In this document: positions 14,335 to 44,906 of the stretch, one piece after another
Position numbering within the stretch: the first letter of the stretch is position 1
Layout of the letters: the number at the start of each line of letters is the position of its first letter
Source: Candidatus Anstonellales archaeon
Lineage (GTDB): Archaea; Micrarchaeota; Micrarchaeia; Anstonellales; CG1-02-47-40
Length of the DNA: 64,000 bases
Direction: 5' to 3'
Assembly (NCBI GenBank): GCA_038869735.1
Contig: JAWCQO010000004.1
Span: 12,455 to 76,454, forward strand
Position numbers and translations under genes: made by a program
The notes under the pieces: model-generated
Databases searched by the model: none
What the model saw: the letters and a program-made list of their open reading frames with translations, nothing else
Told to the model about the DNA's origin: nothing

Positions 14335-14979
14335 ATGAAATCAGCAGTTCTTTTTTCTGGCGGTAAGGATTCAACTATGGCAGCTTTTTTCTCATTGTTT
14401 CAAGGATGGAATACAACTCTAATTTGCGTCCAATCAGAAGAGGATTCTTATATGTTTCATCATCCAAATACCGACTTTTGTAAATTACAAGCGCACTCAA
14501 TGGGCTTGCCTATACACTATATACGAACAAACAAGGCGCGCGAGTTGGCTGACCTTAAAGCTCATCTTGAAAAGATCAAAACAGATTGCATAGTATCTGG
14601 AGCTGTGGCTTCAGAATATCAAAAACAACGCATAGACGTTATAGCTGAAGAACTAAACATCCCTTCTTTTTCTCCGTTATGGCACAAGGGAACCCAAATT
14701 CTGGAGGAAATTGCCCAATATCTTGAAATCTACATCGTTCACGTAGCTGCCGATGGTTTAGGAAGTGAGCTGCTTGGAAAAAGGCTGACCCTTACCGAAA
14801 TATATAATCTTTCAAAACTAAACATCCATCCTTTTTTTGAAGGTGGAGAAGGAGAAACTTTTGTTTCAGATGCTCCGTTTTTTAGAGAACGATTGGAAGT
14901 ACTAGCGTGGGATTACCTTTGTGGTTCAACTCATTTCACCGCTAAGATATCAAAGATACGTGTTCATAAAAAATTCTAA
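14335..14979 (+). CDS. PP-loop ATP pyrophosphatase, diphthine-ammonia ligase (Dph6/MJ0570)-like
   Basis: N-terminal SGGKDS PP-loop at residues 8-13 and a 214-aa length typical of the archaeal DUF71/Dph6 N-domain. Confidence 0.6.
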   Translation: MKSAVLFSGGKDSTMAAFFSLFQGWNTTLICVQSEEDSYMFHHPNTDFCKLQAHSMGLPIHYIRTNKARELADLKAHLEKIKTDCIVSGAVASEYQKQRIDVIAEELNIPSFSPLWHKGTQILEEIAQYLEIYIVHVAADGLGSELLGKRLTLTEIYNLSKLNIHPFFEGGEGETFVSDAPFFRERLEVLAWDYLCGSTHFTAKISKIRVHKKF

Positions 14980-17760: not shown

Positions 17761-17763
17761 CGC

Positions 17764-18912: not shown

Positions 18913-18913
18913 C

Positions 18914-20074
18914 TCATATCAACCTTGTAAGACCGGCAATCTCTACGTCTCCTCCAAGAAGAGGCGACAATATTTTTATACTGGCTATTGTAGACATAAT
19001 TGCGACAAAAGGCATGAATAGGGAAAAAATCATCATCCTAGCTACTGATTCAAAGACGCCCCCTTCACCAATTATCCATGCACTACCTCTATATGTCCTT
19101 AAAAAAGCGTGAGGGACGTCTACAAGAGACCTAAAAATTTCCAAAATGTGTTGAATCAATGACCTAAGAATTCGAAGATATCCTTCCATTGTTGGTTGAG
19201 ACTGTTCTCCAACCAAATTTATTCGAGTAGGTTCTATCTCAAAAAGTGATTCGGGAGTAGGCATACTTTCGCGCGTAATATTACCACCCCCTCCTATCTC
19301 AAAAGGATTGATTAATCCTAATCGGTCGATGTTTAAGGGATTAAGCGTTCTTCCACTATATCCAATGAGTATATATCCTGATAGCGCATACATAAATGGA
19401 TAAACAAAATAAAAACCAACGGCAATAGCAATCATGAGCCCCCCAAGTCTTCTTGTTAGAAAAAAGTTACGAAGGAAAAATCCAAATATAAGAAAAATAG
19501 GGAAAATAGTCTGCCATATAATATCCAGTAAATACTCCTGAAATCGTAAAGCAATCATCATTTTATATAAAATATCTATTGCTATTAGAAGAGCATCCGA
19601 AACCATTGACAATGCGGCAAATGGCTTAATTGAGAGATCTGACATAGGTATAATTGTCAGCCTTAAACCTACTCCTATATCTGAGAGAAACATAAACGTT
19701 GAATTTATCCAAATAATCTGCCCTGCCATCTGCTTTGAGGAATTGAAAATTATCCCCAAATAATTTTTAGCTAACGAGACTTGACACGGCTCGGTGTTCG
19801 TACAAACAACCGAAGATAAGGGATCAGCTGCCAATATAAGCCTGGCGTATCTATCTGCTCCACTATTAAACGCTTCAGCTGCAAATGTAATTAGTATCAA
19901 AATTATGACCGATAAAAACATATGAGCTATTTCACTTCTCGCATAAGCTTCCAACGACTCAATAGAAAGCATTTTGCTTATCGCATAAGCAATAGCAACA
20001 AGTGATATGGTTGAGACAATCGCAATACCAAGCAAAAACCAATATCTTCCAATCAGAATTTCGGCAATGAGCAT
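18914..20074 (-). CDS. Polytopic membrane protein, paralog 4 of six
   Basis: 386 aa. Core motif FPIFLIFGFFLRNFFLTRRLGGLMIAIAVGFYFVYP. C-terminal tail LGGDVEIAGLTRLI. Confidence 0.6.
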   Translation of the reverse strand: MLIAEILIGRYWFLLGIAIVSTISLVAIAYAISKMLSIESLEAYARSEIAHMFLSVIILILITFAAEAFNSGADRYARLILAADPLSSVVCTNTEPCQVSLAKNYLGIIFNSSKQMAGQIIWINSTFMFLSDIGVGLRLTIIPMSDLSIKPFAALSMVSDALLIAIDILYKMMIALRFQEYLLDIIWQTIFPIFLIFGFFLRNFFLTRRLGGLMIAIAVGFYFVYPFMYALSGYILIGYSGRTLNPLNIDRLGLINPFEIGGGGNITRESMPTPESLFEIEPTRINLVGEQSQPTMEGYLRILRSLIQHILEIFRSLVDVPHAFLRTYRGSAWIIGEGGVFESVARMMIFSLFMPFVAIMSTIASIKILSPLLGGDVEIAGLTRLI

Positions 20075-20077
20075 TTA

Positions 20078-21037
20078 CTACCCCATTTTTTGGCTTAGAA
20101 ATTTATTCATGCTCTTTATAAATGTCATCGTAATCAGCATTGATAGACCGGGAAGAAATATCCCCTGCATCAATATTACTGATAACTTTACAAATAGTTT
20201 CATTACTAACTCATAATTCCATAAAACCCTCTCGGTTATTCTTTGATGGTATTCCCCGTCTTGGTTTTCTTGAATGCTTTGTCTATAATCACTAATCCAA
20301 TCATACGGAGCAATTGTCTCTTGTCTGGGGTCTTGACCTGCTGGTGGAGGAAGAAAATCAATCACACCATCTCTTGCATCGATGTACCTCATTATGTTGT
20401 AATGCATGACATATGTAAGAGGAAATACGAAATAAAACCCAAAAGAAGCGGCAATGAGGAGTACCCCGGCATCCCTAGTGGGAGGGAAAATCCTAAGAAT
20501 TATACCTGCAGGCAAGACCAAAGTTAGGGTCGTTGCCTTTATTAACTGGAGACCAATACTTTGTGCTACCAGTGAAGAAGCAAAGGGTGAGATGACGAAC
20601 ACAACCCATTCAAAGATAGATGCTAAAAGCGATAAAAAACTCAACGGTTGGAACCTTATGCTCCAGCCACCCCCAGCTCCAAAGTGGAGCGCTGCCCCAC
20701 CCATCCATTCAAAAAGAATCACTAACCCCTCCATTTGAACAAGTGTCGGAATCGTAAGCTGAGAGATCATTATGTCAAGATATTTCAAGGCGATTTCAAA
20801 GTAATCCACCCCAAATATACTCATACTTACTCCGATTGCCATATTAGCAAGAAAATACGTCATAAGAAGCAAAACCACTGAAAAGAAAACCTGGTATGTC
20901 TCGAGAGTAGCAAAAGCTTCCAACTCAGATTTTCTAAATATCTGAGCTAACATATAAATAAGCGAAATCGAAGTGACCATAACTAATATACTTATTGCAA
21001 TCATCTCAAACTGGCTTCCTCCAATCTCCAAAGCCAT
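20078..21037 (-). CDS. Polytopic membrane protein, paralog 5 of six
   Basis: 319 aa. Core motif LPAGIILRIFPPTRDAGVLLIAASFGFYFVFP. The C-terminal tail diverges from the other five. Confidence 0.55.
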   Translation of the reverse strand: MALEIGGSQFEMIAISILVMVTSISLIYMLAQIFRKSELEAFATLETYQVFFSVVLLLMTYFLANMAIGVSMSIFGVDYFEIALKYLDIMISQLTIPTLVQMEGLVILFEWMGGAALHFGAGGGWSIRFQPLSFLSLLASIFEWVVFVISPFASSLVAQSIGLQLIKATTLTLVLPAGIILRIFPPTRDAGVLLIAASFGFYFVFPLTYVMHYNIMRYIDARDGVIDFLPPPAGQDPRQETIAPYDWISDYRQSIQENQDGEYHQRITERVLWNYELVMKLFVKLSVILMQGIFLPGLSMLITMTFIKSMNKFLSQKMG

Positions 21038-21051
21038 TAGTCAATCACCAC

Positions 21052-22317
21052 CTATACTAGCTTTGAAAGCCCAAATATCTCAACTTCTCCCCCAATTGAA
21101 GCCGCAATACTTCTGTAAGCTGTTACAGTTAAAATTATCTCTATAACTACCCCAACAAATACAAAAGATAGGCTCCACCCAATCTCATTCATCGTTTCTA
21201 CCGTTGCATAGTAAAAAATAACAGAACTCCTCCACAGGGACGCAAGGGAAGAGACGTATCTTAAAGTAAATCTTATATAATTCATTGATATATCGATGAG
21301 CTGTTCTGTTACTTCAACAACCGCGCTTAACAGTCGCCAAGCTCCACAAATTATTCTCCTAAAAAATCCCCAATTTTGAGGCTGCCCACTGCACCATCCG
21401 CCACTTTCATTACTTCTCTCATCCTCGTGATTTTGATAAATGCGTCTGCTTGCTTCTCTCCCTTCCTCAACAACCGTATTCATAAAATTCCCTGCTTGCG
21501 GGTTTGGTTCAATGGTAAGGGGGAATTCGTACTCTCTTATCTGAGGCATTTGGGTGTTAATATATAGTTCTTCGACTACTATCACGGAGAGTGGGAAAAC
21601 AAAATAAGCTGTAAAGGCAAAAGCTATAATACTAGAACCTATCCTCCTTGTTATAAAAAAAGCTCTTAAAAAAAGCCCAAGGGGAAGGAAGACGCTTAAC
21701 ATACTATCCTTAAAAAACAATAATAGCACTTTTTGAAGAGAAATAAGACCAATTGCACCTCCAACAAGGTCCGTGATCAAAATATTACCTTCTGCAACCG
21801 GTACGACTCCCACACCAGGTCCAAACGAAATAGAAAATCTCATTATCGAATGAGGAGGAAAAAAAAAGGTTGAGTGTAATGTGGATACCATGCCCAGCAC
21901 TATCTCGTTTAAATTCAGTGATATGTACTTACTAACTAGCATCCAGAACATAGAATCAAGAAAGATTGAAGGCCGCATATAAATGTCCGCGCTACCACCA
22001 ATAATCTGGCTTATCATTGAGAATAGGCCCAGGGTAAAAAAAGTGATTATTACTATAACTCCAGTTATAAAAACTTCATAAAGCTCCATCTTTGCCCATG
22101 ACTTAATATTTGGAACTGCTAAAAATTCAGACAACATATATGCTATTGCAGTGGCGCCTACCCCAATTAAAAGTGCGGCACCAATCGGAGCAGCAAATCC
22201 TTGGAATCTCCCAATAAAATCTTCAACATTTTCGTCAACGGTTTGTTGCGCATCTACGCTTTGGATCAACAACAAAGAAAACACAAAAAATAAAGACGCT
22301 AAGCTTCTAATCCTCAT
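21052..22317 (-). CDS. Polytopic membrane protein, paralog 6 of six (first gene of operon, has N-terminal signal peptide)
   Basis: 421 aa. Signal peptide MRIRSLASLFFVFSLLLIQSVDAQQ. Core motif LPLGLFLRAFFITRRIGSSIIAFAFTAYFVFP. C-terminal tail IGGEVEIFGLSKLV. Confidence 0.6.
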   Translation of the reverse strand: MRIRSLASLFFVFSLLLIQSVDAQQTVDENVEDFIGRFQGFAAPIGAALLIGVGATAIAYMLSEFLAVPNIKSWAKMELYEVFITGVIVIITFFTLGLFSMISQIIGGSADIYMRPSIFLDSMFWMLVSKYISLNLNEIVLGMVSTLHSTFFFPPHSIMRFSISFGPGVGVVPVAEGNILITDLVGGAIGLISLQKVLLLFFKDSMLSVFLPLGLFLRAFFITRRIGSSIIAFAFTAYFVFPLSVIVVEELYINTQMPQIREYEFPLTIEPNPQAGNFMNTVVEEGREASRRIYQNHEDERSNESGGWCSGQPQNWGFFRRIICGAWRLLSAVVEVTEQLIDISMNYIRFTLRYVSSLASLWRSSVIFYYATVETMNEIGWSLSFVFVGVVIEIILTVTAYRSIAASIGGEVEIFGLSKLV

Positions 22318-22385: not shown

Positions 22386-25166
22386 ATGGATATTAATTAT
22401 GCCCATTGGCAATCCATCTGGGAGAAAAAAGGAGTTTATCAACCAACGGCTTATGATGGAAAAAAATTTTTCCTTACTGCAGCTTTTCCCTATCCAAACT
22501 CTCCTCAACACATAGGACACGCAAGAACATACACCACAGCAGATATATATGCAAGATACATGCGAATGAAGGGAAAAAATGTTCTTTTTCCAATGGGCTT
22601 CCATGTGACTGGCACGCCAATAATTTCGATGGCTAGTCGATTAGCCGAAGGAGACCCCGAAATACTAAGTATTTTTGAAGAAGTTTATCACATACCAAAA
22701 GAAAAAGCACTCCTTCTCAATGACCCAAAAAAGTTAGTTATGTACTTCTCAAAGGAAATAGAAATTGGAATGAGAATGATGGGTTTTTCGATTGACTGGA
22801 GGCGGAAATTTTATACGGATGAGCCCCATTTTAACAGATTTATTCAATGGCAGTTTCGCAAGTTAAGTGAATTAGGATACATAAAAAAAGGCATCCACCC
22901 TGTTCCATGGTGCCCAAAATGCGAAAATCCGCTTTCTGCTCATGATACCCATGGGGACATTGACCCTCATCTAGAAGAAGTTCTTGTAATCAAGTTTAAA
23001 AGCTCAGAAGGTTATTTCCCCACTGCAACATATCGACCTGAAACAATTTATGGTGTTACGAATCTTTGGGTCAAGCCAACAGCCACTTATGTTTTGTGCA
23101 AGATGGGTGAAGAGCATCTTTTTCTATCAAAAAAAGCGTACGAGAGCCTTTCCAATCAGTTGGATATTGAAAAAAAAGAAGAGTTACCCGGTTCTAAACT
23201 AGTAGGTAAAAAATGTACAAATCCCCTAAATGGTAAAGACGTTGAGGTTCTACCTGCTGCTTTTGTAGATGAAGAAGTTGGCACGGGTCTTGTTATGAGT
23301 GTGCCAGCCCACGCTCCTTATGACTATGTTGCCTTACGCGACCTCAACTCTAACCTAACCCCTATACCTGTCTTGGAAGTAGAAGGTTTTAGCTCCATAC
23401 CTGCAAAAGATATAGTAGAAAAACTCAAAATAGAAAATCAGCTGAGCGCCCAGTTGAAAGAAGCAACTGACATACTATACAAGAAGGAGGCACATCTTGG
23501 AAAGATGATTATTGGTGATTATAATGGTATGAGGGCAATAGAGGCAAAAGAAAAAATCTCCCTTGTTTTGCTTTCAAAAGGAGCAGCTTTTTTGATACAT
23601 GTGATTTCAAATTCCCCAATTTTTTGTAGATGTGGCACAAAATCAACAGTAAAAATAGTGAAAGACCAGTGGTTCATAGATTATGGAAATAAAGAATGGA
23701 AAGAAAGAACATTGAGACATCTAATGAAAATGAAAATAATCCCACAAAGCACAGTTCCTGATTATACGTATACTATAAACTGGCTAAAGGAAAAAGCCTG
23801 TACTAGATCACGAGGTCTTGGGACAAATTTTCCATTTGACGAATCTCAAATAATTGAAGCCTTATCTGATTCTACCATATACATGGCATTTTATACCATC
23901 TCACATCTCCTCCCCTCATACCCTCTTGACAAGATAAACGACTCCCTTTTTGATTATATTTTCCTTGGAAAAGTAACCGGCAATTTTAAGCCTGATTCGA
24001 AGGCAGAGGAAATGAGAAGAGAATTTCTTTATTGGTATCCACTTGATTCTCGCCACTCAGCCGTTGACCTAGTCCACAATCATCTTACATTTTTCATCTT
24101 TAATCACGTTGCTATTTTTGATGATGCACTTCTACCACAACAAATAGTTGCAAATGGTTTTGTAACAATGAATGGTAAAAAAATGAGCAAAAGCATGGGA
24201 AATATTCTCCCTCTTCAAGAGGCCATAAAGAAATGGGGCCCTGACGTAATTCGCTTTTCAGTGATAGCTGGCGCAGACATCGCTTCGGATACTGACTTTT
24301 CTGACTCACTTGCAAATGGCGTTTCAAGCAGATTAAGATATGCAGTTGAACTTGCGGAAAAATACCTCTCAAAAAATAACCAAAATCTCCCTGATGAACA
24401 AACAGAGCACGACCTACCCCACAAGTGGCTTTTATCTCGCCTTCATAGAAGAATAAAAAAGGCGCCATATCTTTATGAGAATTTTGCCTTGCGAGAGCTT
24501 GCACATGAATTGCTCTACGATTCCCTCAACGATGTCACCTGGTACCTAAAAAGAACAAAAAAGCCATCTCTTAAAGAATTTTTTGAATACTGGACACTTT
24601 TGATCTCTCCAATAATGCCGCACATCGCAGAGGAACTATCCTTTCGTTTTCTTGGAAGGGAAAAAAGCGTAGTTACTATGCCATTTCCACATCCGGACGA
24701 TTCAAAAATTAGTGATTCATTAGAGCTTGGAGAGGAGCTTCTAATAAATCTCATCGCCGATATAAAACAAATTATCAAAATAATAGGAAGGGGGGAGACC
24801 GCCCCCCCTAAAAAAATCTTTGTCTATGTAGCATCTAATTGGAAAAGAAAACTTCAGAAAATAGCGTATACAAATAAGCGCTTAGACCTAACTATGCGCG
24901 AGGCAACAGAAATTGAGGAATTAAAAGGAAGGCTTCAGGACGTTTCTTATCTTGCAAAAAAGTTTTGTTCAAATCTAAATTCTCTAACAGATAAAATGCT
25001 ATCCGCAGAAGAGGAGCTTTCATATTTTAAATCATGTCTTGATTTTCTCTCAACTGAATTTTCGTGTACGATCGAAATCTTACTCGATAAAGATGCGCCT
25101 TCTAAACATCAACAAAAGGCCTCATCGGCACTTCCTAACAGACCATCAATTTACATTGAATTGTAA
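22386..25166 (+). CDS. leuS: Leucyl-tRNA synthetase (archaeal/eukaryal type)
   Basis: HIGH motif ([10 protein letters not shown]) and KMSKS motif ([10 protein letters not shown]). Size 926 aa. Connective-peptide editing-domain region present. Confidence 0.95.
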
Positions 25167-25266
25167 ATGCTCCTATAATTGGGCTTTATAATTGGACTTT
25201 GTCCATTTCCAGAAGCCTTTAACAAAACCTTTTAAACAAAGAAAAATAAAAAAATAATAGATAAAC

Positions 25267-28200
25267 ATGAGATACAGAAGTATACTCATTTCAACACTTA
25301 CTCTATTACTTTTTTTATCTTCATTACCACTATCAGAAAAAAACATAACAAGACTCCAGGTTTATGTTGATGGACTTACTGTTCATGCTCAACTTACGAA
25401 AGTGGATATGGGCTCATCATTTCGGGTTTATCCTGAAGAATTGGAGAGACAGGTTAGGTCGTTTTTAAGTGAAAATAGACAAGAACAAAGACAGAACGAA
25501 CAGATCCCGTTTTTAGTTCAACGCACAGAACCACTTGCTGGACAAAGTCTTGATTTCTTTCTATATAACCGAGAAACCAGTGAGTATCAACCAGTTTTCG
25601 GATGTAGCGGTCTTCTTACAGATGAGCGCGGAATAGCGAATTGCACTGTAAGCGAGATTTCCGGTTCAAAAACGTGTTCTGTTATAAACGTGTCTTATTC
25701 GGGAACAACAGCCTATGAGCCGTCTACTACTACTGGAATAGTTTGTGATGAATCAAACAACGGCCTCTCTGCATTTGGTCTTGCTACTGAAAACTACCTT
25801 AGGAATAGGCAGACCTACATATGCCTACCCATCTTCCTAATTCTAGGGCTCCTCCTTGCTTCTCTCTACTATTCAGGAAAGAACCCCTTAAATATTTTTG
25901 ATATAACCACTCCGCGGCTTCCAAGACCAAAAAAACACCGCATCACTCCAATCATTATCCGCTCACACCTAATTAGCAATATGTTGATGAATATGAGTCT
26001 CCTTCGCAGAGCTCAACTGGATATCATCAACGCAGCCGATGCGATTGTCCGGATTCTTCCTTCTGATAATACTCTTCATAGCGACCTTCTACAAGCTTAT
26101 AGTGAAATACGATCTGCCAGACGTATCCCCCCCCATATTCGTTGTGCCGCCATCGCAGCGCTCTTTTCTTCTGGACCTCGAGCAGCAGAGACGATTCTAA
26201 GAAATGCATATCAAAGAGGTGCAGTTAGAAGCATACAATCTCTAAAAAAGAACGAAACAGATACATATCTTTCGAGTATACTCTCAAGATCCGGATTAGA
26301 TAAGGAAACCCAACAAACATTAATGCGCTTTCACAAATTTATTCAAGATCGTAGTAGTGCTGCGATAGTAACTTATGAGAAACACGAAAAGCTGAAAGAA
26401 ACGTATGGATATAGCGGTTCCATCGCCAAGTTACTCCTATCCCTTTCTTATAATAGTTACCGGTTAGACCGCACCTTGCCTCGAACAGTAGATAAAACTG
26501 TTCTAGCCACCGTAGGAAGAGTTCCGATTGTTGGCCCTCCATTAGCATCAGTTATTCGCAGCGCCGCTAAAGTTGCATTATTGCCTATAAGGACTCCCCT
26601 AAATTTTGCTATCCTTCCTCTTGAAGTTGTAGGACAGACTAAGATGGCTGTCAAATCAGCTAAAAGCATTCTAAACATTTTTTCAGGTTCTTTGGATAAC
26701 AAACGAGTGGGTAATTTTCATGATGCGCTTTCTCAAATCAAAAACATTTGCAGACATATAACACCAGAGACAGTCAGAGAAGAGGTTATCTCCTACGCAA
26801 TCAGAAAAATAAACGAAGCTTATTTTGGGAGTTCGATTGATGAAGAGACTAGAAACCGCCTTCTAAATATAGTGGGTGCACGGTTAGCGAGTCCCCTACG
26901 AAATGGCGACTACGATGAAGCGTATAGGAGAGCATTATTAATTATGGCTAGATATAATCTAGTTGATCAGCAAACTATTGACTCAATCAAGGCTGTTGTA
27001 CGCGATATAGATAGAAGGTATTATTCGTATATAGGAAATAGAGATAATAGTCTAGATGCGGGCATACACTACTTGAGTGATGTGCATGCTCTTATACGTA
27101 AATTTCAAACTTCCCACCCACAAGAGCAAGTATTCTTCCTAACAACAAGATTTTATGACCCTCAAAATCCGACCACAGAACGAGCAACTGCTGCATTCCA
27201 TTACTTCCTTAGTCTTCAGGCCATTCAACGTTTACGCTCTGGTATAGACACTAGAACTACATTTGCAGACATCTACACTGAATTACATAGAAGAGAGAGT
27301 CAGGAACTTGAAAGAGAAGCTAACTCTGTTGCACAAATAGTCGCAATTCGGTACACTCTTTCTCCTAACGCTCCACAAAGACGACAAACTCGAAACCCAC
27401 ATGATGAATTCCTTCATTTTCTTTTAAACCGAATTGAAATAAAAATCAACAGAATGCGTCCTGCAGAAGTTTATCGCGACTTTTCCCAAGTTCTCATGGA
27501 GAATGCTACAATTTTGAGGTTTTATCAAGACCACATTTTACCGTTACTAGCAAAGACTAGTTCCGGAGCAAACCTTTCAGAACAAGAGCTGTATCAAGAG
27601 TTGATGAAGCATGGGGTTGATTGGAGAACAGCTACAAGGCTTATTTATACTCCACCAAGCAACCTAACACAAAATAGCACGCCTGAGTCCGAAAGAATTG
27701 GGAGCGGAATTGTTCGAGGATGGATAGTAACTGGAGACGGCACCTTCAAACCACTTTTTATAGAGGGCATGTATCACACCTTTGTAACAACAATTTTTGG
27801 TTCGTCCTCTCCCCTATTGGATGAAGGCCTGACCAGGACAAACAGCCAAGGCCAACGTATATCTGTAATGGGAGCTTCAGATGCAGATAAAATAGTCTCC
27901 GTTTACAGCAGGGATAACAATGATTTGTTAGCAACACATGCTGGAGGACCCATAAGAAGACTGTTCTATCAAATTCAGCAGCCGTTTCTAGCCGGTGCAA
28001 AAGTTATCTTCGCAGCAAAAGAAGAGTTTGAAACAGTCTTTGCTCTCCAAGCCCTCGAAAGGAAAGCGTATAAGGATATAGAGCGAAATTACAACCTCGG
28101 AACGTATTTTTCTCAAGTGCCAACGCTCCGGCAGATCGAAGAACAGATAGCTAGCGAAAGTGACAAAACTATGCGCCGAAAGCTAGAAAGAAAACGTCAA

Positions 28201-29505
28201 GACATGATACTGGAAATCTTAAATAACCGAGATATTAGCAGGACATTTAAAGATGCCTATGAGGCCTCACTACTATACGACTTAGTATTTCTAAAAAACG
28301 AGGTAGCAAACTTTATGAGAGACCCGCGAGGAGGAAGTTCTTCCTATGGTATAAGACAAGCAATCCACACCGGATATCATACAGGTCAATCCTTTTTTGA
28401 ACCTGCAAGTTATTTTCTAACACGCGGATACGTTATAGGTGAAGACTACTTGCGTTCCCTCCTATGGTTGCCTGAAAGACTAGGCCGACTTATAACGTAC
28501 TTCTCCCGAGCCCCAATGGCACTGCAATCCGGCTATCCTTCTGTTTATGAAGGAACCCATGAACCTGTTCGCCCCATGCGAGGGCGGGCACTTATGGATT
28601 TTTTTTCACCTTGGAAAAATCTTGATCGTCTATCGAACATACGTCTCCCAGAAATACATCCGACAAGAGGCTTGACACCTGTCGGTTGGTCTTATTTCGA
28701 CGAATACAAAAGAACTCAAGCTCTTCGTTGGCTTGTGCCCGGAAGAACACTCCAGCAACGTCTTAACATACATGAATCTTATTGGGATAACTTTCAAAAC
28801 CTGTACGGTACTCAAGAGATGCATAACATCAACGAGATATTCAATAATATTGTTGGAGACACAACCATTGACTTATTTAGAAATGTACGTCAACAATCAA
28901 GGTGGTGGCATTGGTTCTTCCAAAGGGGGGAGAATGTCACCTTACAGCTCACCGGTTATCTGCTTGCCACCGGTCCTGAATCAGCCCTGAGGACACCCGA
29001 ACTCTATATCAATATTTATACTACTAATATATACAAAGCTTACCCTGTCGGGATGATGTATGTAGATGACGACCCATCAAAATTTACGACACAGCATCAT
29101 CTAAATGCGAGACTTGCAAATAGAATAATTCGTGATTATAATTACCTTGTAGACCTCTATCCAGATATCAAAGAAGATGCACTCAGAAACATATGGAGAC
29201 GGGATAAAATGTCAGCTGAGGAACTTGAATCAACCCGCAAACACGAATACAGTAATTATGAGTTTAGGATATTTTCTCCGTTTTTCCTTGCAAAATGGCT
29301 TGCTCCAAAAACCTATAATCAAGCTCTCGATAGTGCGGTTCTGAGAAGTATTGATGCAAGAACAGCGTATTACGAAAATATTAATCTCTATACTTCACTA
29401 TTATTCCCTCCCTTGCTCTTATCTATGGGAGCTGAAAACTTAGGATATTGGATACGTAATGTAGCAAGAAGAATACGAGCAAGAAGAACACACGCAGGAC
29501 CTTGA
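25267..29505 (+). CDS. Giant (1412 aa) membrane-anchored protein of unknown function
   Basis: Signal peptide MRYRSILISTLTLLLFLSSLPLS. Extracytoplasmic Cys- and sequon-bearing domain of roughly 150 aa. Single TM (YICLPIFLILGLLLASLYY) followed by basic residues. Arg- and Tyr-rich C-terminal region of roughly 1200 aa. I recognise no known catalytic motif (no HExxH, no Walker A). Composition is Arg > Lys, unlike neighbouring genes. Confidence 0.6.
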   Translation: MRYRSILISTLTLLLFLSSLPLSEKNITRLQVYVDGLTVHAQLTKVDMGSSFRVYPEELERQVRSFLSENRQEQRQNEQIPFLVQRTEPLAGQSLDFFLYNRETSEYQPVFGCSGLLTDERGIANCTVSEISGSKTCSVINVSYSGTTAYEPSTTTGIVCDESNNGLSAFGLATENYLRNRQTYICLPIFLILGLLLASLYYSGKNPLNIFDITTPRLPRPKKHRITPIIIRSHLISNMLMNMSLLRRAQLDIINAADAIVRILPSDNTLHSDLLQAYSEIRSARRIPPHIRCAAIAALFSSGPRAAETILRNAYQRGAVRSIQSLKKNETDTYLSSILSRSGLDKETQQTLMRFHKFIQDRSSAAIVTYEKHEKLKETYGYSGSIAKLLLSLSYNSYRLDRTLPRTVDKTVLATVGRVPIVGPPLASVIRSAAKVALLPIRTPLNFAILPLEVVGQTKMAVKSAKSILNIFSGSLDNKRVGNFHDALSQIKNICRHITPETVREEVISYAIRKINEAYFGSSIDEETRNRLLNIVGARLASPLRNGDYDEAYRRALLIMARYNLVDQQTIDSIKAVVRDIDRRYYSYIGNRDNSLDAGIHYLSDVHALIRKFQTSHPQEQVFFLTTRFYDPQNPTTERATAAFHYFLSLQAIQRLRSGIDTRTTFADIYTELHRRESQELEREANSVAQIVAIRYTLSPNAPQRRQTRNPHDEFLHFLLNRIEIKINRMRPAEVYRDFSQVLMENATILRFYQDHILPLLAKTSSGANLSEQELYQELMKHGVDWRTATRLIYTPPSNLTQNSTPESERIGSGIVRGWIVTGDGTFKPLFIEGMYHTFVTTIFGSSSPLLDEGLTRTNSQGQRISVMGASDADKIVSVYSRDNNDLLATHAGGPIRRLFYQIQQPFLAGAKVIFAAKEEFETVFALQALERKAYKDIERNYNLGTYFSQVPTLRQIEEQIASESDKTMRRKLERKRQDMILEILNNRDISRTFKDAYEASLLYDLVFLKNEVANFMRDPRGGSSSYGIRQAIHTGYHTGQSFFEPASYFLTRGYVIGEDYLRSLLWLPERLGRLITYFSRAPMALQSGYPSVYEGTHEPVRPMRGRALMDFFSPWKNLDRLSNIRLPEIHPTRGLTPVGWSYFDEYKRTQALRWLVPGRTLQQRLNIHESYWDNFQNLYGTQEMHNINEIFNNIVGDTTIDLFRNVRQQSRWWHWFFQRGENVTLQLTGYLLATGPESALRTPELYINIYTTNIYKAYPVGMMYVDDDPSKFTTQHHLNARLANRIIRDYNYLVDLYPDIKEDALRNIWRRDKMSAEELESTRKHEYSNYEFRIFSPFFLAKWLAPKTYNQALDSAVLRSIDARTAYYENINLYTSLLFPPLLLSMGAENLGYWIRNVARRIRARRTHAGP

Positions 29506-29549
29506 TAACCAAATTACATGACATGCATATATCTTAACTTTTCCACAGA

Positions 29550-31019
29550 ATGGGGGTTGGGGGAGAAGGGAAATTACTAAAAAATAATAAAAATGCGTTT
29601 ATGACTATTATCCTGCTATCAGAAATAATCGGTGATGTGGTGCAATTTAGAAGGATTTTGTTTTTGTTTTTGTTTTTGTTTTTCAGTCTTATAGGATGCA
29701 TCAGCCAGCAGAGTCAACCCCCGCCCGTTTTTAATCTAAATGAGATACTACAGCCATCAGATCAACAAAGACTTTGTCAGGAGCCAAGCGACCCACAAAA
29801 CCCTTGCAAATGCTACGTTTGTACGGTAAGTACTAATTCCAGCCCCAGCGCAATAACTGAAGCTTCTCTTGAAGGACAGCGGTGCTTATTTATTGGATGC
29901 AACGGAACACCGGAAAGCTACATCCGTCTATTAAATCCTCAACGCACATCTAATCCTATTTACGTCATAAATTTCTTTGCATTTGGGGGAGGACCAGATT
30001 TTGAGTCTTTTTCTGTGGCAAACAGATATTGTAATAACATGATGAATTTGCCTGCTATGTGGATCAATCCTAACACAATTAACTTTAGAAGCAACGACGA
30101 AATTGGCTTCGAACAACACGAACAAGTAGGTACGATTGACTCAAGAGATATCGAGGATTATGTAAAGTCATATCTACAAAACCATATAATCCCCATGTTC
30201 ATCCTCTATAGCGATAACGGAACAATCAACGACGCCAAACTAGAGGATTTTGCTTCCCTTCTTAATAGCACTGGCCCTGTCTACATTTCTACCCAACCTA
30301 CTATTATGACGAGCACAACTCCTGCTTTGTCCATTCGACATGCCCGGACTATAAAGAGATATTGCCAAAAATGCCTCGTAATACTTTCCTATTCCCCAGA
30401 TAATATGAATTACCTTAACTACTCCATCACCCCATCTGATAACGTTGATTTTCTTGGGATGGAAATAATAATAGACCCCAACGATATAGTTCCTCTTAAC
30501 TGCAATCTGAACTCAAAACTTATTCAATACATGTGGGGAGTAAGAGAGAATTTAGCTCGCTATAGAAAGCCAACTTTTTGGAGCATTTTTGCAATAAAAG
30601 AAGGAATATCAGATGACCGTAGGTGTGAGATAAGTTCGCAACAAGTTGGAGAGGCATATGACTTAATTTTTCAATCAGCACAGTCTCTTGCTGCATATGG
30701 GCTTTCAGGAATTTCGCTTCTCTCCTTCTCTGACAGACTCCCGCCATATCTCTCCGCCTATACTGGAGTAGGACTTTTTAGGTCTGATGGAAGTCAAAAG
30801 AATCCCCAACTAAACTTTTTCTTTGACTGGTGTAACTATTATTATACGAACAAACTTCCTGGGGGCTTTGAAAGTGAGGTTGACTATTCAAAAAACTTGA
30901 TAAGTCTTGTTTATCAGCCTGAGCTAAGCATACCTCATTGTGCCTTTGCCATGCAAACGAATCTACAGCGTAGAATTTCCCACTCAACCGGCCCTTATAC
31001 TCCACCCTCACTTAGATAA
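29550..31019 (+). CDS. Cys-rich secreted protein/lipoprotein of unknown function
   Basis: Probable true start at Met 29601 (MTIILL...). Hydrophobic leader FLFLFLFFSLIGCIS with a lipobox-like IGC. Cys cluster CQEPSDPQNPCKCYVC...CLFIGC. No recognisable enzyme motif. Confidence 0.5.
   Translation: MGVGGEGKLLKNNKNAFMTIILLSEIIGDVVQFRRILFLFLFLFFSLIGCISQQSQPPPVFNLNEILQPSDQQRLCQEPSDPQNPCKCYVCTVSTNSSPSAITEASLEGQRCLFIGCNGTPESYIRLLNPQRTSNPIYVINFFAFGGGPDFESFSVANRYCNNMMNLPAMWINPNTINFRSNDEIGFEQHEQVGTIDSRDIEDYVKSYLQNHIIPMFILYSDNGTINDAKLEDFASLLNSTGPVYISTQPTIMTSTTPALSIRHARTIKRYCQKCLVILSYSPDNMNYLNYSITPSDNVDFLGMEIIIDPNDIVPLNCNLNSKLIQYMWGVRENLARYRKPTFWSIFAIKEGISDDRRCEISSQQVGEAYDLIFQSAQSLAAYGLSGISLLSFSDRLPPYLSAYTGVGLFRSDGSQKNPQLNFFFDWCNYYYTNKLPGGFESEVDYSKNLISLVYQPELSIPHCAFAMQTNLQRRISHSTGPYTPPSLR
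29656..29683 (+). repeat. (TTTTTG)n hexanucleotide microsatellite, about 4.5 units, inside the signal-peptide coding region
   Basis: Seen directly: ttttg tttttg tttttg tttttg ttttt. Encodes the FLFLFLF stretch of the leader peptide. Confidence 0.7.
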
Positions 31020-31039
31020 CTCTCAGGTGCATTTAACGT

Positions 31040-32068
31040 ATGGCATACTTTCTAAAAGTTCCCCGCTCAGAAGGAGAGAAAATGAGAATTTTTCTCTCAT
31101 CCATATCTCTTCTTGATACCTCCACCGCCATAGAATCGAATTTAAACTATGTATATCTGCCGCTTTTATCATCAAAAAAAAGAATACCTCTCCATTATCC
31201 TATTGTGAAATTTGCAGGCCGCAAAATCAACAAAAAGCCGCGAAATATATATGAAGCACTCAAAAATACTTTATCAAAGAAGGAACTATCTTCTCTTGTC
31301 AAATCGTTTGATATAATCGGAGATGTAGCAGTTCTTGAAATACCCGATTCACTAAAAAAACATGAAAAAGCCATCTCAAAAGCTGTTATGGCTGTCCACC
31401 CGAATATTAAATGTGTCGTAAAGAAAATGAGCGGAATGGAAGGCGATTTTAGAGTACGAAAGATAAAAGTAATCGGCGGAAGAAGAAGGACGCAAACTTC
31501 ATACAAAGAAAGCGGCGTAAGAATGTTTGTCGACATTTCAAAGATGTATTTCTCCGTTCGACTTGCAACAGAAAGAAAAAGAATTGCATCCCTTGTAGGA
31601 GCCAATGAAAATATACTGGTCTTTTTTTCAGGATGTTGCCCATTCCCTCTTATAATCTCAAAATTTAATCCTACATGCAACATAGTAGCAATAGAACTTA
31701 ATCAGGCTGCCCACAATTATGCCCTAAAAAACATTGCACTAAACAAAATGCGGAACATAACTGCTATTCTGGGCGACGTTCGCGAAGTTGTTCCGAAAAA
31801 CTACTCGAACTTTGCAGACAGAATCGTTATGCCCCTCCCAAAAGGCGGTGAAAATTTCTTGGATGTGGCCTTTTTAGGTGCAAGAAAAGGATGTGTTGTT
31901 CATTTTTATGCTTTCGGACCTAAAGAAAACCCCTACAAAAAAGCCCTCGAGGCCATAAATAAAACTGCTAAGATGTTAAACAAAACCATCCGTATTTTAA
32001 ACAAAAAGGTGGTTAGACCCTATGCTCCCGGTATAGTCCAGGCAGTGATAGACTTTAAGATTCTCTAA
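31040..32068 (+). CDS. trm5: tRNA (guanine37-N1)-methyltransferase Trm5/Taw2-like class I SAM-dependent methyltransferase
   Basis: Trm5 architecture: D1-like N-terminal region, SFDIIGDVAVLEIPD, and a SAM-fold with VFFSGCCPFPL / NIVAIELNQ. Start may be the Met at 31082. Confidence 0.65.
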   Translation: MAYFLKVPRSEGEKMRIFLSSISLLDTSTAIESNLNYVYLPLLSSKKRIPLHYPIVKFAGRKINKKPRNIYEALKNTLSKKELSSLVKSFDIIGDVAVLEIPDSLKKHEKAISKAVMAVHPNIKCVVKKMSGMEGDFRVRKIKVIGGRRRTQTSYKESGVRMFVDISKMYFSVRLATERKRIASLVGANENILVFFSGCCPFPLIISKFNPTCNIVAIELNQAAHNYALKNIALNKMRNITAILGDVREVVPKNYSNFADRIVMPLPKGGENFLDVAFLGARKGCVVHFYAFGPKENPYKKALEAINKTAKMLNKTIRILNKKVVRPYAPGIVQAVIDFKIL

Positions 32069-32101: not shown

Positions 32102-32740
32102 ATGCTTGTATTAGAGATTTCTTCATATCTGCGGCGTTTTGGGGCTGACATCTTTTTGTCGTCCCTCCAATGTTTATCTTATGCTATCTTGATTTTTATC
32201 ATCCTTTTTTCTCTTCTAGCGCCAGAACAACAACCAATATCTAGTTTTTTTTATCAACCCCTCTTTCTCATACCCTATCTCGATGTCTTTCTTGCTTTGC
32301 TTACTTTTCTTTCTATTGAGGTTGTTTTTTATAAAACTGAAAATCTGCCTACTGAATATCTGACACGAAAAGCTTTGGCCATTCTCGTTCTTTTTCTTGT
32401 GGGATTGGGGAGTATCGCCTTCTTATATTATATCAATGAACAGTTCCTTCTTTATTTTTTCTTATTATCAGTTATAAAAGACGCCCAAACAATAATTTTT
32501 AGGGAAGAAATAGCTGACGCGCACACACTATACAAAAAAAATTATACAGCTCTGATTATTTTTACTTCCTTTTCTCTTTTTGTTTATTTTCTAATCACAA
32601 CCGCTGGAACGTATCTATTAGACATGACTTTAATTTCTGTATTTTTAACTCACTTTACAAATCTTTGGACTCTTCTGTGGCTTTTCGTGGCAATATATAT
32701 CCGTTTTCCTCTCAGGCTATCCCTTCCTCTGCACGGTTAG
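32102..32740 (+). CDS. Hypothetical polytopic membrane protein
   Basis: 212 aa, 5-6 hydrophobic helices. No recognised motif. Confidence 0.35.
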   Translation: MLVLEISSYLRRFGADIFLSSLQCLSYAILIFIILFSLLAPEQQPISSFFYQPLFLIPYLDVFLALLTFLSIEVVFYKTENLPTEYLTRKALAILVLFLVGLGSIAFLYYINEQFLLYFFLLSVIKDAQTIIFREEIADAHTLYKKNYTALIIFTSFSLFVYFLITTAGTYLLDMTLISVFLTHFTNLWTLLWLFVAIYIRFPLRLSLPLHG

Positions 32741-33172
32741 AGAAACCCTTTCAGTAGCCACCGTTAAGTTCTTGTCCATTACCTCCACAAAAATATCAAA
32801 CTTTGATTCAGATGCCGGAGAGAAAGCTGTGACATTAATCTTTCTAATTTGAACCTCACCCTTAAAATTCATTGGATAAAGCCACCATTCTTTTTCGGCT
32901 ATGCGGATGTAGTTTTCATCTATACTTTCTTCAGTCCTTATCTTTACTAGAGGCTGGGAAATTTCGTCTTTTTGATTTTCTATTCTTATAAATAGGGTGG
33001 CGGTTTGATTATCTGTTATAACTGATGGCTCAAATTCAGCCTTTAAAAAGATGCCGCTTGCATTTCCTACATTAAAAACGTTACCTGCACTAAAAATTAA
33101 CGCTATCACTGCTGCAAATAGTGATAAGACTATAACTGCTAGCAATATTTTTTGATTCTCAACTTTTGCCAT
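32717..33172 (-). CDS. Hypothetical signal-anchored extracytoplasmic protein
   Basis: 151 aa. N-terminal TM helix LLAVIVLSLFAAVIALIF followed by a beta-rich domain. Confidence 0.4.
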   Translation of the reverse strand: MAKVENQKILLAVIVLSLFAAVIALIFSAGNVFNVGNASGIFLKAEFEPSVITDNQTATLFIRIENQKDEISQPLVKIRTEESIDENYIRIAEKEWWLYPMNFKGEVQIRKINVTAFSPASESKFDIFVEVMDKNLTVATERVSLTVQRKG

Positions 33173-33269: not shown

Positions 33270-33368
33270 GCAGGGGTAGCAAAGCCTGGTCAAATGCGCA
33301 GGACTCAGAAAGAATCTTGGGATATCCTGTCGGTTAGCCGTTCGAGAGTTCAAATCTCTCCCCCTGCA
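33270..33368 (+). tRNA. tRNA-Leu (anticodon CAG) with a 14-nt intron in the anticodon loop
   Basis: Folded by hand. Acceptor GCAGGGG/CCCCUGC with discriminator A. Anticodon stem CAGGA/UCCUG. Loop CUCAGA|A interrupted by roughly 14 nt (about 33310-33323) at the canonical 37/38 position. Long variable arm UCGGUUAGCCGUUC. T arm GAGAG-UUCAAAU-CUCUC. Confidence 0.7.
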
Positions 33369-34182: not shown

Positions 34183-35379
34183 ATGCGCAGGTACATGCTA
34201 ATGATACCCAACATATACGAAGGTAACTATAAGCGACTTGTGATTTTCCCTCTGATTTTAATATTAACATCCATTTTTTTTATACCGCAAATAAAACAAG
34301 GTGTGGACTTTAAGGGCGGAGTCTTAATCACCCTCCATACTTCTGCTCCAGTAAATATAAGTATAGCTGAATCCACTCTCCAAAGCGAGCTTAAAACAGC
34401 GGTAAGCATCAAGCAGATAGAGACAGCTATAGGCAACTCGATTGAAATAAGCTTCCCTCTTGATGAAAATATATCAAGAGCAGAAAAAATAAAGGAAGAA
34501 TTCTTTTCACTTGTTGACGACGCTTCGCGGCTTGAAGCTGATGCATCTGTTCTAGAGTCAGACCCAAACTCAACATCTACCGGAATTTCGCCCGATGCAA
34601 AAGAAAAGTATACAGAAGCTCGCGAAAGACTTAACTTGTATGCAGATGAACTATTTCTGTTAGCAGGACTTAATAAACAAGCTGCCAAAGCCAATAGCAC
34701 CAACGAGCTCCGCAGAATGGTTAGCGATGCGTATAACTCTATCAATAGTGATTATCAAACAAAAATAAGAAGCACAATAGAAAAACACATCCCTTACTCG
34801 TCAATATCCTTTGAGCTAGTCTCCTCAACGCTTTCAGAGAGATTCCTCTCCTCAGCATTATGGGTTATTCTGGTCTCATCGGCGCTTTCAATAGCAGTTG
34901 TTTTTTTTGTTTTTCGCACATTTATACCTAGTATTGCCGTACTGATTGGAGCGGCATCAGATATAATCATAGCATTGGGCGCAATGGGTCTTTTTGGAAT
35001 ACCACTTACTCTCGCTTCATTTGCAGCTCTACTTATGTTAATAGGTTTTTCCCTTGACACCGACATCCTTCTTACGATGCGCACCCTCAAGAGGTCGGAG
35101 GGAAGAGCCCGCGATAGAGCTTTTGAATCAATGAAAACGGGTTCAACTATGAGTATGGCAGCAATTACTGCGTTTGCATCCCTTCTCATCCTCTCACTCG
35201 CAACAAACATATCTACATATTACGAAATATCCTCAGTTGCTCTTGCCGGTCTTTTTGGTGATTTGTTTGCTACATGGGGACTTAACGCCGTTATCATTCT
35301 TTGGTATGCGGAAAAGAAAGAAAAGGAAGCAGAGGCAATAAAAACCCACTTCGCTTCTCTTTATGAAAGGAAGGAATAA
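34183..35379 (+). CDS. secF: Protein-export membrane protein SecF
   Basis: SecD/F fold: TM1, periplasmic domain, and the conserved C-terminal 5-TM bundle (LIGAASDIIIALGAMGLFGIPLTLASFAALLMLIGFSLDTDILL). Lies immediately upstream of the larger paralog, as in archaeal secF-secD pairs. Confidence 0.7.
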   Translation: MRRYMLMIPNIYEGNYKRLVIFPLILILTSIFFIPQIKQGVDFKGGVLITLHTSAPVNISIAESTLQSELKTAVSIKQIETAIGNSIEISFPLDENISRAEKIKEEFFSLVDDASRLEADASVLESDPNSTSTGISPDAKEKYTEARERLNLYADELFLLAGLNKQAAKANSTNELRRMVSDAYNSINSDYQTKIRSTIEKHIPYSSISFELVSSTLSERFLSSALWVILVSSALSIAVVFFVFRTFIPSIAVLIGAASDIIIALGAMGLFGIPLTLASFAALLMLIGFSLDTDILLTMRTLKRSEGRARDRAFESMKTGSTMSMAAITAFASLLILSLATNISTYYEISSVALAGLFGDLFATWGLNAVIILWYAEKKEKEAEAIKTHFASLYERKE

Positions 35380-35382
35380 CTA

Positions 35383-36975
35383 ATGAAAAATACTACCTTT
35401 TCGATATTGTCTGACAGGCGCATTTTGTTATTGGTGTTTCTTACCTTAGCTGCTCTTCTTTATTCGTTACTGAACGGGATAAAATTTGGAATAGATTTTT
35501 CAGGAGGAACACGCATACCTGTTGTTCTTGAAACGGGCGTCGATTCAGCAACGATGCTAGAAATGGTCGAATCCATAAAAACAAGAACAGCAACGCTCGG
35601 GTTGACCGAGGTAAAGGTAAGGGGAGTTGGCAACTCCCAGATTTATGTAGAAGTTCCAAGTTCTGATCCTGCACTCGTTTCTCAGGTCCAACATATACTT
35701 TCTCAGCAGGGAGTTTACGAAGGAATAATCGACGGACGTGTAGCAATTAAGGGAGATGATATATTTGCCGGAACCATAGTGCAGGTGTCTCCGCAGTTTC
35801 TTCAAGGAGGAGCTGATTGGGGCGTCTCATTTACAATAACTCAAAAGGGCGCATTGCGCTTTGCCCAAGTGGCAAAGGGAAAAGCAAACTATCCCCTCTT
35901 TATGTTTCTAGATAGACCAAAAGATTCCATTATTATAATGAAAAAGAAGTCATTTTTAGAACCAAGCTATACCTTATTCGGGGCATCCATAGTCGAAGAT
36001 GACCTAATAAAGGCAGCTGAGTTTGCCTTGAACTTATCTGAAGAAGAAGGCGGCTCGATCCAGCTTTATTTTGAAGAAGATTTCAACAGCTATAACCAGA
36101 CTTTATTTCCAAAGACCAACAAGACACGTGCTATTATTGAATCTAGCGTATCCAATGAAATAAAAGCAACTCTAACATCAAGAGGATTCCAGTTGGTTGA
36201 AAAGACAAGTCAAGAGATCGTACCAGAATTTGTAGTGCCAAACCAACCGTTCTCAAACTTTCGAGCCGTTGTTTCAAAATGGTCAGCAGTAGGTCTTCTC
36301 TCAAGTCCCTATTTGGTACCTTCTGTCACAACCGGAGCGCCTAGCTACTCCTATCAAATTACGGGACCTGGTGAAGGTACGGGTCAGCAGAGGGTTATTT
36401 CTGCAAGACAAAGGGCCAAAGAGATTGAATCAATATTGAAAGGAGGTGCATTTCCTGTTCAAATATCTCTTGGTTCCACCACTACGATACCTGCCCCTCT
36501 TGGAAGAGAGTTTCTTAAAATGAGCATAATCGGCGCTGCAATCGCGCTTGTGCTTATCTCATTACTCGTAGCATTAAGATATCGCAATCCCAGATTGGTC
36601 CTACCGGTTATCTTCATAAGCATTTCTGAAATGATAATTCTTGTCTCCTTTCTAGGAGCATTTTCAATAGACCTCGGTACAATGGCAGGTATAATCGCAG
36701 CAATTGGGGTTTCGGTTGATGCACAGGTTGTAGTTACCGACGAATTGCTAAAGCGTGGGTCTCAAACGACCCAAAAAAAACTCCAAAATGCATTTTCAAT
36801 CATTTTGACAAATGCCACTGTGGCAGTTATCGCGATGGTTCCTCTTCTCTTTTCAGGAATGGTCGAGATAATCGGATTTGCTACAGCTCACGTTTCTGGA
36901 TCCCTACTTGGTGTACTAATAAGCAGGCCGGCTTACAGCGCAATCGTTGAGAAGTTTATACATGTTGAAGAGTGA
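35383..36975 (+). CDS. secD: Protein-export membrane protein SecD
   Basis: 530 aa. Large periplasmic domain, then the conserved TM bundle (FISISEMIILVSFLGAFSIDLGTMAGIIAAIGVSVDAQVVVTDE). Confidence 0.7.
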   Translation: MKNTTFSILSDRRILLLVFLTLAALLYSLLNGIKFGIDFSGGTRIPVVLETGVDSATMLEMVESIKTRTATLGLTEVKVRGVGNSQIYVEVPSSDPALVSQVQHILSQQGVYEGIIDGRVAIKGDDIFAGTIVQVSPQFLQGGADWGVSFTITQKGALRFAQVAKGKANYPLFMFLDRPKDSIIIMKKKSFLEPSYTLFGASIVEDDLIKAAEFALNLSEEEGGSIQLYFEEDFNSYNQTLFPKTNKTRAIIESSVSNEIKATLTSRGFQLVEKTSQEIVPEFVVPNQPFSNFRAVVSKWSAVGLLSSPYLVPSVTTGAPSYSYQITGPGEGTGQQRVISARQRAKEIESILKGGAFPVQISLGSTTTIPAPLGREFLKMSIIGAAIALVLISLLVALRYRNPRLVLPVIFISISEMIILVSFLGAFSIDLGTMAGIIAAIGVSVDAQVVVTDELLKRGSQTTQKKLQNAFSIILTNATVAVIAMVPLLFSGMVEIIGFATAHVSGSLLGVLISRPAYSAIVEKFIHVEE

Positions 36976-44890: not shown

Positions 44891-44906
44891 AATTTTTAAA
44901 AAGTTT

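Follow-up and report, generated by a model that had tools for sequence, protein, structure and literature searches.

Very large proteins that are restricted to one lineage and suspected of a part in host interaction are known from Nanohaloarchaeum antarcticus, whose SPEARE proteins lie for the most part outside the cell and have domains that can be recognised as protease, adhesion and nuclease domains. The protein families specific to DPANN lineages are mostly unannotated membrane or surface proteins, and some of these lineages encode SLT (lytic transglycosylase) proteins that are predicted to lie at the surface, belong to organisms without murein, and have been proposed to act on the walls of other cells (PMC8204110). 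Polytopic membrane proteins with about five transmembrane (TM) helices, encoded together with envelope components, are in turn represented by VirB6, CedA and CedE of the bacterial type IV secretion systems (T4SS) and of the Ced DNA import system of Sulfolobales (PMC11868833, PMC9905601); CedE of Saccharolobus, with five TM helices, is a structural homologue of VirB6 and is required for both DNA import and export (PMC11868833). Moreover, bacterial T4SS have the specialised lytic transglycosylase VirB1 as a companion, and R388 has such a gene beside its trw operon. The subject of this report is a set of eight genes, among them one for a giant protein of 1412 amino acids (aa), found in a genome of Candidatus Anstonellales archaeon, a member of the Micrarchaeota, in the 64,000-nt stretch formed by positions 12,455 to 76,454 of contig JAWCQO010000004.1 (assembly GCA_038869735.1), hereafter the window.

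Compared with T4SS and Ced, this module has six fixed paralogues of the polytopic component and not one or two, and it has neither a VirB4/CedB ATPase nor a VirB2/CedA1 pilin. Its giant cytoplasmic partner has no counterpart in T4SS or Ced, and the paralogues show no profile similarity to TrwI/VirB6. With the SLT proteins of other DPANN lineages (PMC8204110) the module shares its lineage specificity, a predicted surface SLT domain and owners without murein, but its SLT domain belongs to a lipoprotein of about 720–980 aa and not to the giant, which is SLT-less and, by prediction, about 85% cytoplasmic; the phylum is a different one, and no sequence relationship was detected. Unlike the SPEARE proteins, the giant has an ectodomain of only 160 aa, a cytoplasmic bulk and no recognisable domain. 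Finally, the lipoprotein encoded in the window, of 489 aa, resembles described archaeal lipobox lipoproteins in its hydrophobic leader ending in L-I-G-C, with a Gly-Cys that is invariant in 12 orthologues, but its mature domain matches no family.

In the window, two forward-strand open reading frames (ORFs), coding for the giant (25267-29505) and for the 489-aa lipoprotein (p489; 29550-31019), are enclosed by leuS (22386-25166, forward strand; Pfam domains tRNA-synt_1, Anticodon_1 and an editing domain) and trm5 (31040-32068; Pfam domain TRM5-TYW2_MTfase), where a first-pass annotation made from the letters of the sequence had placed them. That annotation regarded the two genes as a possible surface sensor or effector module of their own. 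That view proved too narrow: the two genes form one arm of a module of eight, the other six members of which, membrane proteins paralogous to one another, occupy 15685-22317 of the reverse strand. The two-gene view arose because leuS separates the halves of the module in this genome; it is a housekeeping gene that lies within the module in this sub-lineage only and forms no functional part of it. The module is a Micrarchaeota-specific, vertically inherited unit of eight genes whose families are unannotated.

The evidence for this unit comes from the relatives. Sixteen loci came from a scan of GTDB genomes, one for each species, and 30 more from a metagenome scan; removal of near-identical copies left 38 distinct loci. 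Almost all of the 16 loci of the GTDB scan are labelled Micrarchaeota or Micrarchaeia, with two labelled "archaeon" or "uncultured archaeon", and the first two homologues found lay on contigs with the same local gene order. Every locus has the six paralogues in a fixed order; the giant gene and, behind it, the lipoprotein gene are divergent from them. The upstream neighbour of the giant gene, scored in 35 loci, is paralogue 6 in 26 and leuS in 4, while the remaining 5 were scored as paralogue 5; the majority of these five scores are likely artefacts of the ORF-overlap filter, in which an over-extended ORF call masked paralogue 6. The locus L004/L021, outside this tally, also has leuS upstream of the giant gene, as in the window. 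Overall, leuS stands between the halves of the module only in the window, L001, L002/L007, L003/L020, L004/L021 and L026. The complete order leuS-giant-lipoprotein-trm5 recurs in L002/L007, L003/L020 and L004/L021, with LeuS proteins 49–61% identical to that of the window, and of the 26 non-redundant loci that are long enough to show it, 25 have the lipoprotein gene downstream of the giant gene. Paralogue 1 has secF and secD as immediate same-strand neighbours in at least 12 loci; in the window, this pair (34183-36975, forward strand) is found 3 kb downstream of the lipoprotein gene. The outer flanks vary from locus to locus and consist of housekeeping genes (RtcB, PolB, CarB, leuS, trm5), and no ATPase or other conserved extra gene accompanies the module in the flanks of the 38 loci. 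A contig of 3.4 kb labelled "Patescibacteria group bacterium" (L016/L045) carries paralogue 6 and the giant gene and is probably misbinned.

Regarding the six membrane proteins, their relationship emerged from tblastn comparison of the window proteins with the loci. In order, they are paralogue 1 (m297; 15685-16683), paralogue 2 (m358, 358 aa; 16684-17760), paralogue 3 (m382, 382 aa; 17764-18912), paralogue 4 (m386, 386 aa; 18914-20074), paralogue 5 (m319, 319 aa; 20078-21037), which is the best conserved of the six, and paralogue 6 (m421, 421 aa; 21052-22317), which is directly divergent from the giant gene in most relatives. A start restricted to ATG truncates paralogue 1 to 297 aa, while the probable start at GTG 16683, which abuts the stop codon of paralogue 2, gives 332 aa and restores the first TM helix. 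Each paralogue has about five hydrophobic segments, and common to all are the motif LPxGxxLRxFxxTRxxGGxLIAxAxGxYxVxP and, at the C-terminus, a tail of the type GG(D/E)VEIxGLxxL(I/V). The positive-inside rule would place the Arg-rich loop and the tail in the cytoplasm and the two larger loops outside. In the 16 non-redundant loci with exactly six paralogues, every protein (96 of 96) finds its best inter-locus match at its own position in the gene order, which indicates that the duplications predate the divergence of these genomes. A match of paralogue 1 to SecE/Sec61-gamma (E = 0.004, below the cut-off) was dismissed, a single one of the 72 members having shown it. A further reverse-strand ORF of 231 aa with one TM helix (14976-15671) directly follows paralogue 1; it has no relative in 48 related loci and does not belong to the conserved module.

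No other member of the family is as short as the giant protein of the window. This protein is 100% identical to a partial "hypothetical protein" from a metagenome-assembled genome (MAG) of "Candidatus Anstonellales archaeon", and word-seeded homology searches, made with the single protein and with alignments of 3 and 13 sequences, reached three database proteins only. A HMMER profile of the C-terminal 713 aa, searched exhaustively against 1.84 billion cluster representatives, recovered just 34 of them at E <= 1e-3, nearly all of 1400–2300 aa; where members of the ten clusters that were looked up bear a name, all are "hypothetical protein" of Micrarchaeota-type MAGs.

Hydropathy gives the giant a leader (aa 5-23) and one further TM helix (aa 183-201), in agreement with the signal peptide, the small ectodomain bearing cysteines and sequons, and the single TM helix described in the first-pass annotation. 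Residues 1-182 (25267-25812) comprise a signal peptide or signal anchor and a small ectodomain with the conserved cysteines C113, C126, C137 and C160; five of the seven cysteines and three of the ten sequons of the protein fall within the first 186 aa. Residues 183-219 (25813-25923) contain the TM helix and a near-invariant juxtamembrane motif, YYSGKNPLxxFDITTPRLP. The following part (aa 220-735; 25924-27471) is basic, little conserved and variable in length, with a net charge of +23 over the first 300 residues past the membrane (202-501). The conserved C-terminal region (aa 736-1345; 27472-29301) has an invariant core, E...MRDPR...GYHxGQ...E, with its MRDPR...GYHxGQ...E part at aa 1012-1045, followed by GYP (aa 1089-1091) and by further invariant residues, Arg, Gly and Tyr, at scattered positions. 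Conservation in the family peaks at the cysteine framework of the ectodomain, at the TM helix with the juxtamembrane motif, and at the C-terminal core, and the length of the poorly conserved stretch in between accounts for most of the range in size. The region that adjoins the basic stretch on its C-terminal side is mostly helical in a prediction of low confidence.

Throughout the family the giants are basic, with isoelectric points (pI) of 9.2–9.6 and net charges from +26 to +66. One to three zinc-ribbon-like CxxC...CxxC motifs are present at the C-terminus of 19 of 26 representatives; the giant of the window and its two nearest relatives are without them. The ectodomain holds 3–7 cysteines, and most of those on the cytoplasmic side appear within the zinc-ribbon-like motifs. 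This distribution, the positive flank on the C-terminal side of the TM helix and the zinc ribbons point to an N-out/C-in topology, with the N-terminal domain outside and some 1200 residues predicted to be in the cytoplasm. With its bulk placed there and no Pfam domain in 26 members, the giant is not adhesin-like, and the earlier remark that it has no recognisable catalytic motif stands.

The second forward-strand gene of the module would encode an archaeal lipoprotein, to judge from its lipobox, with lipidation and leader cleavage both predicted. The hydrophobic leader (aa 26-51) ends in FSLIGC, in which G49-C50 is the invariant Gly-Cys and the lipobox Cys50 is encoded at 29697-29699. The annotated start gives an unusually long N-region, and alignment of the orthologues suggests ATG 29601 (Met18) as the real start. 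Of the 14 cysteines in the window copy, C86/C91 and C272-x-x-C275 are invariant in the 12 orthologues, so that both features named by the first-pass annotation, the lipobox-like leader and a cysteine cluster with CxxC, turn out to be conserved. The orthologues share the lipobox, about a dozen invariant or near-invariant cysteines, and an N-domain of about 430 aa in which hydrophobic strand-like and helix-like segments alternate regularly in the alignment; we suspect an alpha/beta barrel-type hydrolase fold. Most orthologues have 720–980 aa and extend into a C-terminal domain, and in 5 of the 12 the SLT lytic transglycosylase domain (Pfam PF01464) is scored, with a best E of 2.5e-5. Their MRAIxxQES motif can be aligned, if weakly (E 0.3), to the catalytic region in a lytic transglycosylase of solved structure. 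One of the 12, of 909 aa (L014:13278-16007), has an extra GDSL lipase/esterase domain past the SLT region, a pairing that recalls the combination of O-acetyl-peptidoglycan esterase and lytic transglycosylase.

Upstream of the giant gene, a TATA-box-like sequence, TTTTAAAC (25230-25237, forward strand), lies 30–37 nt 5' of the ATG, and its equivalent in the closest relative, L001, is gctttaaaagcc, about 30 nt 5' of the ATG. The presence of such a box at the same distance in both suggests that it is probably the giant gene's own promoter, giving a leaderless or short-leader mRNA. A direct repeat that had been proposed as regulatory is indeed present, 2 nt from where it had been placed: TATAATTGG is found at 25174-25182 and 25187-25195 (13 nt apart), right behind the stop codon of leuS, and at no other place in the 64 kb. 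To find two copies anywhere in the window is not in itself remarkable, as 21 of 100 shuffles gave two or more. The repeat is absent from L001.

None of these proteins can be classified at present. Pfam, NCBIfam, PHROGs and PADLOC returned no matches for the eight window proteins; comparison of 26 giant, 12 lipoprotein and 72 paralogue sequences with Pfam gave only SLT, one GDSL and scattered single weak matches; PDB sequence-profile searches with the module families were empty or insignificant; and no description of the module was found in the literature library that was searched. The module is novel in the sense that it is unclassifiable against current libraries, which is not a demonstration of a new mechanism.

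The reading that we favour, to which we give about an even chance as a whole, is that the module specifies a lineage-specific membrane complex in which the giant is a basic cytoplasmic arm. The six paralogues would form a hetero-oligomeric core in the cytoplasmic membrane, and the giant would be docked by its near-invariant juxtamembrane motif onto their conserved cytoplasmic loop or tail; the strongest conservation is found at this membrane interface, in the TM helix and FDITTP of the giant and in the LPxGxxLRxFxxTRxxGG loop of the paralogues. The giant would expose a small, disulfide-bonded ectodomain, cross the membrane once and continue for about 1200 residues in the cytoplasm, where its basic region of variable length and its conserved C-terminal domain may serve as an arm or scaffold that binds an anionic partner, be it the phosphates of the membrane or nucleic acid. 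The lipoprotein would be the outward arm, with an SLT module that cuts glycan strands in most lineages and was lost in this genome. To our knowledge, Micrarchaeota do not make murein, and for this reason the glycan target would be the wall of another cell. The same kind of target has been proposed for other DPANN lineages (PMC8204110).

As to the job of such a complex, our proposal is more tentative and may well be mistaken: a conduit or anchoring platform that would move or fix material across the envelope alongside Sec, rather than a sensor. The recurrent adjacency of secF-secD, taken together with the lack of a nucleoside triphosphatase (NTPase), suggests a platform that uses Sec export or the membrane potential and not an ATP-driven secretion motor.

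Several observations weigh against this picture. What links the eight proteins is co-localisation and nothing else, no energising NTPase is found in the module or in the 64-kb window, and the adjacency of secF-secD could be synteny without function. The folds are not established: an AlphaFold2 model of the C-terminal 713 aa of the giant, built from a 3-sequence alignment, is unusable, with a predicted local distance difference test (pLDDT) score of 33, and a paralogue model of pLDDT 62 found nothing significant in a fold search of the PDB. The lipoprotein of the window holds only the conserved Cys-rich N-domain and ends before the SLT domain, as do those of L002 and L004, and it has a Gln where most orthologues have a conserved Glu ("TTE"); by both features it is a reduced form. 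In addition, the lipoprotein gene is not next to the giant gene in L001, where an unrelated 221-aa ORF (hhalign probability 0.2%) takes the expected place, or in L026. These absences, the loss of the SLT domain and the substitution by Gln together suggest that the outward arm is dispensable or degenerate in this sub-lineage.

Some of the same facts would suit genes that are neighbours by inherited gene order only, with a giant and a lipoprotein functionally unrelated to the paralogues, for example a membrane-tethered cytoskeletal or nucleoid-anchoring protein beside an independent surface hydrolase. Direct interaction of the eight products is not in evidence, leuS stands between the two halves without apparent harm, and the two loci just named do without a lipoprotein next to the giant. 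Against this, the adjacency is kept where the giants are down to 16–30% identical while the outer flanks are reshuffled, and the divergent layout suggests that the genes are co-regulated: in most loci, the two halves share a short intergenic region. We regard this explanation as rather unlikely, though it fares better than the others that follow.

A second alternative, which we hold to be improbable, is a divergent T4SS-like or Ced/Ted-like machine for the transfer of DNA or other macromolecules, in which the paralogues would be a VirB6/CedA/CedE-like channel, the SLT lipoprotein a VirB1-like wall-opener, and the giant a handler of substrate or nucleic acid. The predicted five TM helices of the paralogues with N-out/C-in orientation and the SLT domain of the lipoprotein orthologues are in line with these roles, and the basic giants with their zinc ribbons would suit nucleic-acid transfer. 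The NCBIfam model of CedE (NF053657) was matched by one of 72 paralogues (from L001-L018) with E = 2.5e-4, a single unreplicated match, and TrwI/VirB6 appeared at rank 17 of the fold search with a non-significant E of 2.4. However, hhalign of the 72-sequence profile with R388 TrwI/VirB6 gave a probability of 0.17%, consensus sequences of the six paralogue groups matched neither CedE nor CedA, and no Pfam match recurs among the 72 paralogues. A VirB4/CedB/HerA-type ATPase was found neither in the module, nor in the flanks of the 38 loci, nor among the window ORFs scanned, and a VirB2/CedA1-like two-TM pilin ORF neither in or beside the module nor in the window. Moreover, the module is single-copy and chromosomal, set amid housekeeping genes.

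The giant could also be pictured as a transmembrane receptor or signal transducer, whose ectodomain would bind a ligand and whose cytoplasmic region would relay the signal, with the lipoprotein as co-receptor. An ectodomain, one TM helix and a large cytoplasmic region do make a receptor-like architecture, and the cysteine framework of the ectodomain is conserved. Yet no kinase, cyclase, HAMP, PAS, DNA-binding or other output domain is found in the 26 giant members, the best conserved parts are the TM helix, the juxtamembrane motif and the C-terminal core and not the surface of the ectodomain, and strict linkage to six paralogous polytopic proteins is atypical of a sensor, which leaves this idea decidedly improbable.

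The suggestion that the two forward-strand genes are a foreign island, or cargo that a mobile element brought in between leuS and trm5, retains next to no probability, as it is refuted by the native synonymous composition of the segment and by the same genes standing at the locus throughout the lineage: the locus structure is shared by relatives as distant as 49–67% identity in LeuS, the module is spread across Micrarchaeota, and both genes are native and vertically inherited. The impression of foreignness came from a slightly raised G+C (GC) content and an odd ratio of Arg to Lys. The giant gene has 41.2% GC against a window mean of about 38.8%, and about nine other window genes are higher; the raised GC singled out by the first-pass annotation is overstated. 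The excess is confined to codon positions 1 and 2 (0.495 and 0.410), while GC at the third position (GC3), 0.331, is typical of the window; GC3 of the 489-aa gene is 0.371, within the window range of 0.27–0.40. By leave-one-out synonymous codon usage, the giant gene has the most negative score in the window (z = -2.9), mostly because of its 1412 codons; per codon, its shortfall is 0.034 nat, and clearly native genes have 0.04–0.06 nat. Tetranucleotide distance from the window mean makes the flagged segment (z 1.7–1.8) no outlier beside the membrane cluster at 16–20 kb (2.3) or the stretch at 44–48 kb (2.5), and altogether the deviations in GC, codons and tetranucleotides are no larger than those of other native genes.

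Other marks of mobility were likewise missing. No att-like repeats bracket the segment, short repeats being at chance level only; no tRNA adjoins it, the nearest lying at 14.2 kb, 33.3 kb and 37.7 kb; no integrase was seen among the window ORFs scanned; and a viral contig collection held no relatives of any of the three protein families, in line with the empty PHROGs and PADLOC searches.

What is unusual in the segment lies in its proteins. The pair is Lys-poor: Arg and Lys make up 9.0% and 3.3% of the giant, and for the 489-aa protein the values are 4.5% and 2.9%, against 3.9% and 9.0% for leuS and 5.8% and 11.4% for trm5. It had been described as Arg-rich and Lys-poor among neighbours that are essentially all rich in Lys and Ile; the first part stands and the second does not, as the six membrane proteins upstream of leuS have only 1.4–2.7% Lys and R/(R+K) ratios of 0.50–0.77. 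All eight module genes fall in this latter range, compared with 0.31 for leuS plus trm5 and 0.79 for a polytopic ABC-3 permease of the window. In orthologous giants of other loci the ratio varies from 0.37 to 0.69 while R+K stays steady at about 12–15%, from which it follows that the trait of the giant family is basicity. The preference for Arg over Lys is strongest in this locus among those examined, even though this genome has the lowest GC of them. We infer that the bias reflects a constraint at the protein level and is not a sign of origin. The alternative of strongly different constraints, which the first-pass annotation had also offered, fits the family-wide basicity, although the reason for the preference for Arg is unexplained. 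For the scanning of genomes this carries a caution: a protein-level Arg/Lys bias may mimic the signal of foreign DNA when GC is judged by eye.

The rest of the window is core chromosome, with two ftsZ genes, IGPS, diphthamide synthase, secF/secD, dnaK/dnaJ and gyrB/gyrA. Its highest-GC genes (44–45%) are the tandem FtsZ paralogues at 11842-12906 and 12917-13978 (forward strand), and its lowest GC (0.32–0.36), together with the largest tetranucleotide deviation (z 2.5), is found at 44000-48000, a stretch more atypical than the flagged segment. The genes for DNA gyrase B and A (gyrB and gyrA, by Pfam) lie at 55196-59568 on the reverse strand of this archaeal window. A second large unannotated protein, of 847 aa and without a Pfam or NCBIfam match, is encoded at 8225-10768 (forward strand). 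Behind trm5, 32102-33172 encodes a polytopic protein of 212 aa and a single-TM protein of 151 aa, which have counterparts at the same position in L003 (37% and 54% identity). At 33270-33368 (forward strand), Rfam recognises a tRNA of 99 nt (47 bits) that ARAGORN missed, probably an intron-containing archaeal tRNA. In a related locus, the module has in its vicinity a gene for the tRNA ligase RtcB that is split by an intein (L049:22859-24769, the same as in L009).

Returning to the membrane complex that we favour, its furthest extension would be an envelope machine of Micrarchaeota that has not been described before, with a channel of six paralogues, a basic giant that handles cargo, and a lipoprotein that cuts the glycans of a partner, serving contact-dependent exchange of metabolites, lipids, protein or DNA between these ultrasmall archaea and hosts; we consider this unlikely as it stands. 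It is an open question by what means DPANN archaea attach themselves to other cells and exchange material with these, and candidate machinery on the side of the symbiont is almost unknown. With the module there is a definite set of eight co-inherited genes, found across the phylum, to seek in cryo-tomograms, proteomes and co-culture transcriptomes of cultured Micrarchaeota.

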